The position numbers were made by a program, and so were the translations under genes. A stretch of DNA of 64,000 nucleotides from positions 15,108 to 79,107 of IMG/VR virus record IMGVR_UViG_3300006736_000004; one strand, written 5' to 3'. The stretch's first letter is position 1; each line of letters opens with the position of its first letter. Positions 37,775-52,920 of this stretch are shown here, in pieces. A model generated the notes under the pieces. It was not told where the DNA came from. It worked only from the letters and a program-made list of their open reading frames with translations, and made no database searches. The stretch comes from a virus.

Positions 37775-38109
37775 TGGGTGGCAGAGCAAGCAAACAAAAG
37801 GGAGATAGATTTGAGCGTGATCTCGTTGCTGCCGCTAAAGTTCATGGACTAGACGCTAAACGTGTACCATTAAGTGGTGCATGTGAGGGCTATAAGCATG
37901 ATTTAGAGGTTTTCAACGGGGATGAAAAATGGACCGTGGAAGCTAAAAAGCGTGGTTCTGGATTTCGTTCCATTAGAAAGTGGCTTGGCACAGGCGGTGA
38001 GGATGACCCTGATGTTTTGATTATTGGCTCAGATCGTGAGAAACCGTTAGCCATATTACATGCAGACGATTTTTGGTGGCTCTTAAAGAGGGCCGGTAAA
38101 AATGGGTGA
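37771..38109 (+). CDS. Holliday junction resolvase (PD-(D/E)XK, Hjc-like)
   Basis: SKQKGDRFERDL, RVPLSGA, VEAKKR, DREKPL. Confidence 0.8.
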   Translation: MMGGRASKQKGDRFERDLVAAAKVHGLDAKRVPLSGACEGYKHDLEVFNGDEKWTVEAKKRGSGFRSIRKWLGTGGEDDPDVLIIGSDREKPLAILHADDFWWLLKRAGKNG

Positions 38110-38422
38110 CGTTGTAACACTCAGGCCTTGGAGCGAAAAAGAAATTGACTTTTTGCATGAGGCATATCAGGATAAAAATTGGAGCGTTAAGGAAATCTGT
38201 GAGAAGCTAGATAGGACAAAAAATATGGTAATCGGTTCCGCAAGACGGCGTGGATTAAAACGCCCAGAGCATTTCGTCGAAATAGGTGAGGGGGATAATA
38301 AGCTAATTCGTCTTGGCAAATGCTCCCGATGTGAAATGCCGATTTTCAGCAATAATAAGGAAGATTGGACTGACCCGCTTGTTTGCACTCATTGCACTGC
38401 CGGTCTACCAGAACAGGAGTAA
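38102..38422 (+). CDS. GcrA-like regulator (N-terminal HTH plus Cys cluster)
   Basis: WSEKEIDFL...SVKEICEKLDRTKNMVIGSARRRGL resembles the GcrA W...SA..IA..LG..RNAVIGK..RLGL pattern. Confidence 0.65.
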   Translation: MGDVVTLRPWSEKEIDFLHEAYQDKNWSVKEICEKLDRTKNMVIGSARRRGLKRPEHFVEIGEGDNKLIRLGKCSRCEMPIFSNNKEDWTDPLVCTHCTAGLPEQE

Positions 38423-41161: not shown

Positions 41162-41205
41162 GTTCTCATTATGTTCTTGACAAAGCGATATAGAAGGAGT
41201 ATATT
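41162..41205 (+). promoter_or_regulatory. LexA box abutting a sigma70 promoter upstream of the replication initiator
   Basis: GTTC-tcattat-GTTC (41162-41176) immediately followed by TTGACA-N17-TATATT (41177-41205). Confidence 0.75.
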
Positions 41206-41368: not shown

Positions 41369-42109
41369 ATGACCGAATATCTAGCCATAAAAAATTGGTC
41401 CGAATATCAGCACTACAAGGACAGGAATCCACCTTGGATTAAGCTCCATGTGAGTATCCTTGCTAGCGAAGATTGGACAATGCTAGCGGATGCTAGCAAG
41501 TTAACCATGATAGCTTGCATGGTAGTAGCAAGTAGAAAAAGTGGTGTGATTCCTAATAACCCAAGTTACATCAAAAGAGTGGCCTACTTAGACGAACTGC
41601 CAGACCTAGAACCCTTGATTTCCTGCGGTTTTCTCATAAAACTGCAAGCGGATGCTAGCACTTGCAAGCAAGAGCAAGCAACTGTCAGACCAGAGTCATA
41701 TAGAGATATAGATAAAGATAAGAAAGATATAGATCATTTTGAAGTTTTTTGGAAAGTCTACCCAAGGAAAATCTCTAAAGGTAAAGCGAGGGAATCTTAC
41801 CAATCTGCTATTGCCAAGACTTCTCCTGAGAGGTTGTTATCTGGTGCGCGGCGATATGCGTCGGAGCGGAGCGGGGAAGACCAAAAGTTTTCCAAGCACC
41901 CGACAACGTGGCTCAATCAGGAATGCTGGTTAGAAGAAGGCTCTGAACCGGAGGAACCTCCCTACCTCACAATTGAAGAGCGTGTGCGGCGACAAGATAT
42001 AGAATTTGCAGAGCGGAAAAAATTTGATGATGCACTATGGGAGCAGTTGCAAGCCAACAAGGCCAAGGAGGAAGCTGATGAGCAAGAAGCAGATGCGCCA
42101 GCCTTCTGA
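41369..42109 (+). CDS. Replication initiator protein
   Basis: IKNWSEYQHYKDRNPPWIKLH N-terminus; FEVFWKVYPRK and KHPTTWLNQECW C-terminal domain. Confidence 0.75.
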   Translation: MTEYLAIKNWSEYQHYKDRNPPWIKLHVSILASEDWTMLADASKLTMIACMVVASRKSGVIPNNPSYIKRVAYLDELPDLEPLISCGFLIKLQADASTCKQEQATVRPESYRDIDKDKKDIDHFEVFWKVYPRKISKGKARESYQSAIAKTSPERLLSGARRYASERSGEDQKFSKHPTTWLNQECWLEEGSEPEEPPYLTIEERVRRQDIEFAERKKFDDALWEQLQANKAKEEADEQEADAPAF

Positions 42110-43504: not shown

Positions 43505-43519
43505 GTTCACGTTCTGTTC
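43505..43519 (+). promoter_or_regulatory. LexA box
   Basis: GTTC-acgttct-GTTC. Confidence 0.55.
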
Positions 43520-49479: not shown

Positions 49480-49944
49480 ATGTCTCTCAATGCTAAGAGA
49501 AGAGCATTTGTTAGAGAATATGGAGTGGATAAGAACGCTACTCAATCGGCCATAAGAGCAGGTTATTCTAAACAGACAGCGTATGCTCAAGGTAGTCGGT
49601 TGTTAAAGGATGTAGAGGTAATAGAGGCTTTACAGCGTAACGAGGCCGAGCATATCAAGCGTTGTGCCTATGATCGGGATCGTATTAATAATCAATATCA
49701 GTCGGCTTTTGACCTAGCCCAAATGAAAGAGAATTGCGGAGTGATGGTGCAAGCCACCACTGGCCTTGCCAAAGTGAACGGCCATATGAACGAGGGGGCC
49801 ACTGTTAACGTCAATGTCGGTTTGGGTGGATTGCTAAAAGACCTTGAGGATAGACGCATAAAAGACATAACCCCAACACCCCTTAAATTGGACGCTCAGG
49901 ACGTATTGTTACCCATTAAGGATGCAACCGTCCAGAAAACATGA
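49480..49944 (+). CDS. terS: Terminase small subunit
   Basis: KRRAFVREYGVDKNATQSAIRAGYSKQTAYAQGSRLLK (Terminase_2 pattern). Confidence 0.9.
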   Translation: MSLNAKRRAFVREYGVDKNATQSAIRAGYSKQTAYAQGSRLLKDVEVIEALQRNEAEHIKRCAYDRDRINNQYQSAFDLAQMKENCGVMVQATTGLAKVNGHMNEGATVNVNVGLGGLLKDLEDRRIKDITPTPLKLDAQDVLLPIKDATVQKT

Positions 49945-50016: not shown

Positions 50017-50252
50017 GTTCTCATTATGATCACGTTTTGTTCCATGTTGCGTTGCCGTTTTGTTCACGCTTTGTTCCATGTTGCCAGTGCGTTCACGTTT
50101 TGTTCCCGGCTCGTTCACGTTTTGTGCCTGGGGCATAAGGACAAAGTGCGAACATAACATGAACGTATAGGCAACAGAACGTAAGGGGTACAGACGTTCC
50201 GTGAACAAAGGGTGAACAAAAAGGGCGTTCACGCTATATTCACGTTTTGTTC
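50017..50252. promoter_or_regulatory. Array of alphaproteobacterial LexA boxes (GTTC-N7-GTTC / GAAC-N7-GAAC)
   Basis: Perfect boxes at 50062, 50091, 50102 (+) and 50150, 50203 (-), plus many one-mismatch half-sites in 11-bp register. Confidence 0.75.
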
Positions 50253-50357: not shown

Positions 50358-50386
50358 TTTACAGATCGACAAAACGTGATTATATT
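50358..50386 (+). promoter_or_regulatory. Sigma70-like promoter upstream of the packaging/head operon
   Basis: TTTACA-N17-TATATT in an AT-rich stretch. Confidence 0.5.
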
Positions 50387-50927: not shown

Positions 50928-51152
50928 GTGACAAACGAGGGCATTAGACTTTTGGTCGCTGAGATTACGGATTCTTACTCCCGTGTAGACGCTATTCTTA
51001 AGCAATATGAGTTAACTCCACAAGATCACTCTATTGCTATGGGGATGGTATTTGAGGAGTGGGGATTGGATGAAGGAGCGTTTGACTCCGCCACTGAGCA
51101 GATACGGGAGCAATTCCCGTGGACAATGCAGAATGTAAAGGGAAACGGATGA
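50928..51152 (+). CDS. Hypothetical protein
   Basis: GTG start with RBS AAGGA. Confidence 0.45.
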   Translation: MTNEGIRLLVAEITDSYSRVDAILKQYELTPQDHSIAMGMVFEEWGLDEGAFDSATEQIREQFPWTMQNVKGNG

Positions 51153-51480
51153 AGAAGCCAAAGAGAACTAGAATTTTAAGCGCGAGGGAACGACTTCCCG
51201 GCTTTAAGTTTCAAGAAGCCGTAAACAAGGCTGAGAGGGCTATTATTGGTTCTGGCCGTTTGTCAAGAGGAGTTACGTCCTCACAGGATTTGAAGCGTTT
51301 GTCAAAACAGGAGCCCAAGAGCAAGACGAAGAAGGCTATAGCACCATGGCGACGCCGGAGAGATGCAGAAGGTCATGCTCTTTATGGCCGGGGAAGGATT
51401 AGGAAGGATTACAGTGGCATTGGGCGGTTGAAAGGCTATTAAAGGATTTTGAAGAAGAGGAAGGCTATTAGAGGATACTA

Positions 51481-52920
51481 GTGGCTCAAGCACTGAGTAA
51501 GGCCGACACTGAGCGCGACAAACAGATAGCGAAGTTAGCGTCATGGTTCACAGACCCTGTATTATTTGTAAGAGAATGCTTCAACACAGAGCCAGAGAAG
51601 TGGCAAGCGGAAGCACTTCAGGCGGTGGTAGACAACAATCGTGTGGCGATACGCTCTGGGCATGGAGTTGGCAAGACAGCGTTTCTTTCGTGGTTGATAC
51701 TATGGTGGATGCTGACTCGCAGACCAGTGAAAATTGGCTGTACGGCGAACTCGAAAGATCAATTAAGGGACGTTCTTTGGGCTGAAGTCCATCTGTGGCA
51801 TAACAGACTACCTGATTTTCTGAAGGAAGCACTTGAGATACAGACTGACAGGGTTATCTTCGCTGAAGATGCTTCTAAAGACCAAGTGGAGAATTTTGCG
51901 CGAGCGAGGACTGCTAGGAAGGAGAACCCTGAAGCTCTCCAAGGATTACACTCCAAGTATATGCTATTCATTATCGACGAAGCGTCGGGCGTCGAAGAGG
52001 AGGTCTTTGAAGCAGCCAGAGGAGTAATGTCTTCTCACGGTGCTAAAACGGTAATGACCGGAAACCCTACTAGAGCAAGTGGGTATTTCTTTGGTGCATT
52101 TCACAAACACAGGGCGTTATGGTGGACCCGCAGGGTTTCCTGTAAAGAGGTTCCCAACTTAGTATCTGACTCCTTTCGTCAGGAATTAATTGACGAGTGG
52201 GGCGAGGACTCTAACGTGTTTCGCTATCGGTATTTGGGTGACTTCCCAATTTCCGATGAGAATGTGGTTATTCCGTTAAATTTATTAGAGGCGGCACAGG
52301 ACCGTAAAGTTGAAATCTCCTACACAGGGATTAAGTGGGGAGTTGATGTGGCGCGGTTTGGTGCTGACAGGACTTGTTTGGTGCGGAGATCATATAATGC
52401 CATCTTACAACCAGCGCAAACGTGGCGAAATAAGGATATCATGCAAGTCGCCGGATTGGTGGCTCAGGCTTACGAAGAGGAAGCCCTGGAGTGCCGTCCT
52501 GAAATTATCATGGTGGATGTGATTGGTTACGGTGCTGGTGTTGTGGATAGACTCACAGAGCTTGGTCTTCCGGTTTGCGGAGTGAATGTAGCTGAGAGTG
52601 CTGCTGTTAAGGCCAAGTATATGCGCTTGAGGGATGAATTGTGGTTTGAAGCAAGGCACTGGTTTGAAGAGAAGCACTGTCGCATCCCTAGAGATGAGAT
52701 GATGGTGGCTGAGTTAAGCGGGGTTGTTTACGACATTACCTCTACTGGCAAATTAAAGGTTGAATCCAAGCCTGAGATGAAGAAGCGTGGCTTACGAAGT
52801 CCTGATATTGCAGATGCTGTGTGTCTTACTTTCGCTAAAGGTTTTTCTCCTGAGAATGATCCTGAGGAAGATGACGATTACGATAATCAAGAGGGCCGCA
52901 ATGAAACGACAGGATACTAG
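51481..52920 (+). CDS. terL: Terminase large subunit
   Basis: Walker A RSGHGVGKT, Walker B IIDEASG, MTGNPTR, nuclease motifs GVDVARFGAD and SPDIADA. Confidence 0.95.
   Translation: MAQALSKADTERDKQIAKLASWFTDPVLFVRECFNTEPEKWQAEALQAVVDNNRVAIRSGHGVGKTAFLSWLILWWMLTRRPVKIGCTANSKDQLRDVLWAEVHLWHNRLPDFLKEALEIQTDRVIFAEDASKDQVENFARARTARKENPEALQGLHSKYMLFIIDEASGVEEEVFEAARGVMSSHGAKTVMTGNPTRASGYFFGAFHKHRALWWTRRVSCKEVPNLVSDSFRQELIDEWGEDSNVFRYRYLGDFPISDENVVIPLNLLEAAQDRKVEISYTGIKWGVDVARFGADRTCLVRRSYNAILQPAQTWRNKDIMQVAGLVAQAYEEEALECRPEIIMVDVIGYGAGVVDRLTELGLPVCGVNVAESAAVKAKYMRLRDELWFEARHWFEEKHCRIPRDEMMVAELSGVVYDITSTGKLKVESKPEMKKRGLRSPDIADAVCLTFAKGFSPENDPEEDDDYDNQEGRNETTGY

Follow-up and report, generated by a model that had tools for sequence, protein, structure and literature searches.

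Which protein, if any, reads a gene-free stretch of 235 bp located ahead of the packaging and structural genes of a marine phage? The stretch lies at positions 50017-50252 of a 64,000-bp window (bases 15108-79107 of the 79,107-bp IMG/VR virus record IMGVR_UViG_3300006736_000004), and all coordinates below refer to this window unless a locus is named. In the first-pass annotation it was described as a dense array of about 20 GTTC/GAAC-like half-sites in 11-bp register, including five perfect boxes in both orientations, and was proposed to act as a sponge or switch for LexA, the SOS repressor of alphaproteobacteria.

The array and its surroundings

The array itself proved to be real. There are 16 exact GTTC/GAAC tetramers between 49996 and 50252, compared to an average of 1.9 per 250 bp, and this is the densest 250-bp interval of the whole 79,107-bp record. 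Perfect GTTC-N7-GTTC boxes occur at 50062+, 50091+, 50102+, 50150- and 50203-. The window holds eight such boxes in all against 2.19 expected, and none of 100 shuffles reached eight. Seven further units carry one or two half-site changes. The 11-bp register holds within boxes and in short runs, but not across the whole array, since start-to-start gaps are 22, 23, 11, 18, 11, 11 and so on.

The repeated unit is a 15-mer with consensus GTTCACGTTTTGTTC. The left arm (50017-50127, plus strand) consists of seven forward units starting at 50017, 50028, 50051, 50062, 50091, 50102 and 50113. The right arm (50139-50217, minus strand) consists of three reverse units at 50139, 50150 and 50203 and is thus convergent with the left one. 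Two further forward units follow at 50227 and 50238 (50227-50252, plus strand). Because of the convergent arms, the stretch would fold in single-stranded state into a long imperfect hairpin (z = -4.9). Contigs from four marine metagenome studies cover the array without a single difference and two of them bridge it. It is therefore not an assembly artefact but real DNA of a widespread phage.

The array starts 72 bp after the small terminase gene terS (49480-49944, plus strand; PF03592 at E 8e-18, phrog_51 at E 8e-20). It is followed by an AT-rich stretch and, after 106 bp, by a promoter-like sequence TTTACA-17-TATATT (50358-50386, plus strand). With 10 of 12 consensus matches, this is the best sigma-70 match between 48600 and 51600. 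It stands at the head of an operon comprising three small ORFs without family matches, the large terminase gene terL (51481-52920, plus strand; phrog_2 at E 1.5e-49 and PF03237) and the portal gene. One ORF, directly upstream of terL (51119-51442), overlaps the end of the preceding small ORF and encodes a very basic 107-aa protein rich in Lys and Arg. It has no family match and could be a DNA-binding packaging accessory. The spacer of the promoter contains a copy of the unit's centre (TCACGTTTTGT; 50367-50381, minus strand, with an exact 11-mer at 50369-50379), both outer half-sites of which are degenerate.

Relationship to bacterial SOS operators

We wondered if the units belong to the alphaproteobacterial LexA-operator class, GTTC-N7-GTTC, as tabulated for Caulobacter crescentus (da Rocha 2008, in PMC9578287). 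To obtain a reference independent of phages, upstream regions of SOS genes were collected from a sample of Alphaproteobacteria. Boxes were present upstream of 28 of 30 lexA genes, 12 of 30 recA genes and 23 of 26 imuA-like genes (the tallies include one unpublished genome, G043, no sequence of which was used). Their spacer is variable at positions 5-8 and T-rich at positions 9-11, and boxes before recA and imuA read GTTC-YYN-TTTT-GTTC. A weight matrix built only from the recA and imuA boxes was then run over the whole record. It found 12 sites of at least 12 bits, against 2.15 in shuffles, and ten of them lie in the array. Units of the left arm score 11.5-19.2 bits and those of the right arm 12.3-18.0 bits, whereas the two last units score 8.2 (50227, weak) and 13.0 bits (50238). 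The exact unit scores 19.2 bits, inside the range of real recA boxes (9.6-24.4).

The two remaining sites flank the replication-initiator operon. The best site of the record (41162-41176, plus strand; 21.9 bits) is a canonical box that directly abuts the -35 hexamer of TTGACA-17-TATATT (41177-41205), upstream of this operon. The other (43505-43519, plus strand; 13.6 bits) lies just after the stop codon of the operon's last gene. In contrast to the box at 41162, the array ends 106 bp before promoter 50358, and the copy inside that promoter scores -5.9 bits as a LexA box, so that direct gating of this promoter by LexA is not shown.

The exact 15-mer is not enriched in 401 alphaproteobacterial genomes (4 hits against 3 for the reversed control), but contexts of the hits are informative. 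One copy sits as a single operator-like site directly after the -10 of an imuA-like gene, and a one-mismatch copy lies before another imuA-like gene. Two further exact copies occur singly in prophage-like regions (loci L102 and L103, both at position 1501), beside a CI-type HTH plus S24 repressor and a YqaJ recombinase, suggesting that temperate phages of these hosts use the same word as a single operator. None of 91 bacterial SOS-gene loci has three or more such sites within 300 bp. The one control locus with a cluster of matrix hits (L419) is a plain 11-bp tandem repeat. The statement of the first-pass annotation that ordinary SOS promoters carry only one to a few boxes thus holds in our sample, and the array is far beyond an ordinary operator.

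Several features of the units do not fit this class. They favour A-C at spacer positions 5-6 (9 and 12 of 13 units), while A at position 5 occurs in only 1 of 66 bacterial boxes. In four units a GTTC half-site is changed while the centre stays intact, and the copy inside promoter 50358 keeps only the centre. This hints that the reader may touch the centre of the unit. DnaA boxes were also considered, because the unit contains a TTGTTCACG word resembling DnaA-box variants, but this was dismissed since the profile of the unit follows SOS operators and the unit sits at imuA-like promoters.

Similar arrays in other phages

Next, we examined whether similar arrays occur elsewhere. A scan of IMG/VR for two copies of the unit's core gave 53 loci, about 39 of which hold two or more copies of the 15-mer and many of which hold arrays of 3 to 14. 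A scan for any three perfect boxes, whatever the spacer, gave at least 118 loci. Many of these are plain tandem repeats, but 20 of 68 arrays with variable spacers keep T at positions 9 and 11 in most boxes, compared to 0 of 39 in a control scan with CTTG half-sites. Together with the window, these make 42 loci in at least 15 nucleotide-distinct groups of uncultured phages, with GC content from 30 to 56%. The arrays are non-coding, and in five near-complete genomes there is one array each, holding nearly all boxes of that genome. One array has 15 boxes with 13 different spacers, all T-rich at positions 9-11. Across 72 unique phage boxes, positions 5-8 carry only 0.14-0.27 bits, as in bacterial boxes.

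BLAST search of the region and of two arrays against 50,697 cultured phage records found no relevant match, and five cultured alphaproteobacterial phages have no array. A scan of 185,579 bacterial and archaeal genomes for two core copies gave 44 scattered hits and no true arrays; the arrays are thus not prophage-borne in the genomes searched. A TerL scan gave one 45% relative without boxes, and phage C72C1, the nearest TerL relative, has similar gene order but no boxes. TerS relatives of 66% and 52% (P0002 and P0003) were found, while TerS scans of metagenome and viral contigs gave nothing useful.

Phages bearing the arrays have unlike proteins. No protein family is shared by more than four of the first eleven groups in the DNA examined. 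Several groups replicate with T7-type primase-helicase and PolA, whereas the window phage has DnaB and an initiator with a DnaD-like C-terminal part (41369-42109, plus strand; phrog_270 at E 1e-20 and phrog_26426 on residues 6-87). Arrays lie within 3.3 kb of terS or terL in about 21 of 41 loci, but their position relative to terS varies: upstream, downstream and from 17 bp to 2.2 kb away. In one group they lie 140-270 bp upstream of terS, and a second lineage displays the order array, strong promoter, single site in the leader, then terS. In other groups the sites rarely overlap sigma-70-like promoters. The TerS proteins are not detectably alike in the DNA-binding part (window TerS against the others, E above 0.4), yet the same 15-mer accompanies them.

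Further repeats were observed beside some arrays. Just upstream of the array, one phage group has a second repeat family of TGTGACA...TGTCACA palindromes (locus L010, 1000-1060, and its relatives), while locus L029 (6620-6680) has instead a run of GGTGACCAAT 10- or 11-mers. These suggest a second regulator acting at the same control region. A TATATATATATA(A)AAGGGG-type element recurs next to boxes in one phage group (loci L011, 6700-6850 and 8270-8290; L027, 5640-5660; L012, 12910-12940) and is tandemly triplicated inside one array; it may be a promoter or an unwinding element bracketed by the boxes. In a 55,851-bp genome flagged as having direct terminal repeats (G404, the record of locus L055; bases 541-881), all 15 perfect boxes lie within 0.9 kb of the left end of the record. 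About 9 of 21 contigs available in full have their array within 600 bp of a contig end. This could reflect genome termini or assembly breaks at the repeats.

Candidate readers of the array

One DNA word in phages with unlike proteins argues for a conserved host reader, and the profile is that of SOS operators. What the sequences demonstrate is the operator class of the sites, their clustering at the boundary between the early/replication side and the packaging/late operon, the canonical box at the initiator promoter and recurrence of the arrays across unrelated phages. Binding by LexA, identity of the host and function of the array are inferred. We consider the array to be most likely a cluster of about 10-12 operators read by host LexA, with a probability of roughly 0.5 (0.5-0.6 for LexA as the reader). 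The interpretation of the first-pass annotation is thus supported in part: the operator class is well supported, but the array may serve as a switch, a sponge or both.

The host is most likely a marine alphaproteobacterium, although capsid and terminase relatives infect mixed Proteobacteria and cyanobacteria as well as Pelagibacter, Roseobacter, Caulobacter and Sinorhizobium. A small ORF (38102-38422) with weak matches to the alphaproteobacterial cell-cycle regulator GcrA (Pfam, E 0.007) and to a D5-like transcriptional regulator (phrog_323, E 8e-7) gives only a faint hint. The record itself encodes no LexA DNA-binding domain and no S24 peptidase. In the proposed mechanism, LexA dimers would coat the array when phage genomes are few, sitting head-to-tail along one face of the helix in two convergent arms just upstream of the late promoter, and the box at 41162 would likewise hold down the initiator operon. 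When LexA is cleaved after RecA activation, or is outnumbered as phage DNA multiplies (about 12 sites per genome copy), the platform would empty, releasing phage replication and late genes together with the host SOS regulon. The array would thus amount to a LexA-sensing and LexA-titrating platform. E. coli is reported to hold on the order of a thousand LexA molecules, so titration by a hundred or more genome copies would be hard to avoid if affinity is operator-like.

Of the alternatives, an unidentified phage-encoded protein contacting the TCACGTTTTGT centre survives best, though we regard it as unlikely. The array would then be a regulatory or replication-type iteron set and its likeness to SOS boxes partial mimicry or coincidence. 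This is supported by preservation of the centre where half-sites decay, by the centre-only copy in promoter 50358, by rarity of A-C in bacterial boxes and by occurrence of one array per genome, often beside AT-rich or TATA-rich DNA, as is the case for origins. On the contrary, no protein family is shared across the groups in the DNA examined, the centre is variable across phages and the unit also occurs as a single site at bacterial imuA-like promoters. Still less likely is another host protein binding 11-bp-phased direct repeats, such as a response regulator of OmpR/PhoB type. Direct repeats one helical turn apart are typical of that family and the same word in unrelated phages argues for a host reader, but no such regulator with GTTC half-sites is known to us, and the spacer profile copies that of boxes before lexA, recA and imuA, the core SOS genes.

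The two alternative readers that the first-pass annotation had named as refuting the LexA reading, the phage initiator and TerS, are both weakened. The array could be a second origin bound by the initiator, comparable to oriR of Bacillus phage SPP1, which lies far from its initiator gene, with the box at 41162 as an autoregulatory site. The initiator is genuine, boxes lie at both ends of its operon and AT-rich DNA follows the array. However, seven TGCWAGC repeats at about 10-bp phasing, followed by an AT-rich stretch, lie inside the initiator gene (41460-41683, plus strand; 3 paired matches against 0 in 100 shuffles). This is the layout of lambda-type origins and probably the real origin of the phage. 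Moreover, no homolog of the initiator was found in the other array-bearing loci, several of which belong to phages with T7-type replication enzymes, and this reading is thus improbable. Least probable is a pac or cos site, for although the array adjoins terS and phased repeats suit DNA wrapping around a TerS ring, as established for SPP1/SF6-type TerS, unrelated TerS proteins accompany the same word at varying distances, and boxes also occur at 41162 and 43505, far from the packaging genes.

We found no paper describing the word or such arrays. Compared to alphaproteobacterial SOS loci, which carry one or two boxes, the phage sites share two GTTC half-sites as a direct repeat 11 bp apart, a T-rich 3' spacer and use in either orientation, but there are 10-12 of them within 235 bp, mostly outside any promoter and with the A-C preference. 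The nearest known system is Bacillus thuringiensis phage GIL01 (PMC9700832), a non-integrating phage without CI-type repressor of its own that uses host LexA with co-repressor gp7 at two operators at P1. Here, a LexA-type box similarly sits at the initiator promoter, and no S24 or CI-like gene and no integrase were found. In contrast to GIL01, which has no array of a dozen sites, no lysogeny evidence, resolvase, ParA or other partition genes were found in the record, and no gp7-like gene was recognized, without a model of gp7 to search with. Five other array-bearing genomes lack a tyrosine integrase as well, and a GIL01-like carrier state therefore has no support. Titration loci such as E. coli datA for DnaA, and transcription-factor decoy arrays (theory in PMC11549397), are also clusters of high-affinity sites outside promoters whose copy number rises with replication and can lower the free pool of a regulator. 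Those are cellular and act on the cell's own regulator, whereas a virus would here carry sites for a host repressor; titration is an inference only. TerS recognition arrays (lambda cosB R sites, SPP1 pacL/pacR, P1 pac hexamers) are likewise phased repeats next to the small terminase gene, but they co-vary with their own TerS. Iteron origins (lambda ori inside gene O, P4 ori/crr) share repeats in both orientations, AT-rich neighbouring DNA and one locus per genome, but the window phage has its separate lambda-like set, and the array word is shared by phages with different replication proteins.

A more far-reaching possibility, which we regard as doubtful but not excluded, is that many lineages of apparently virulent marine phages carry one dedicated array of host-LexA operators as a DNA sponge and copy-number timer. 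As the phage genome multiplies, the array would strip LexA from the cell, switching on the phage's own LexA-gated replication and late genes and the host SOS regulon (RecA, repair, block to cell division) without any DNA damage. Mobile elements are known to exploit LexA through one or two operators. An array of a dozen sites, kept in at least 15 unrelated groups of ocean phages with no sign of lysogeny, would be a different use of LexA, in which the virus senses or depletes a host global repressor with DNA alone. If true, this gives a simple mechanism for timing late genes by genome copy number and suggests damage-independent SOS induction in abundant marine bacteria. The arrays could also serve as a marker of host class, i.e. 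of a LexA of the GTTC-N7-GTTC type, for uncultured phages.
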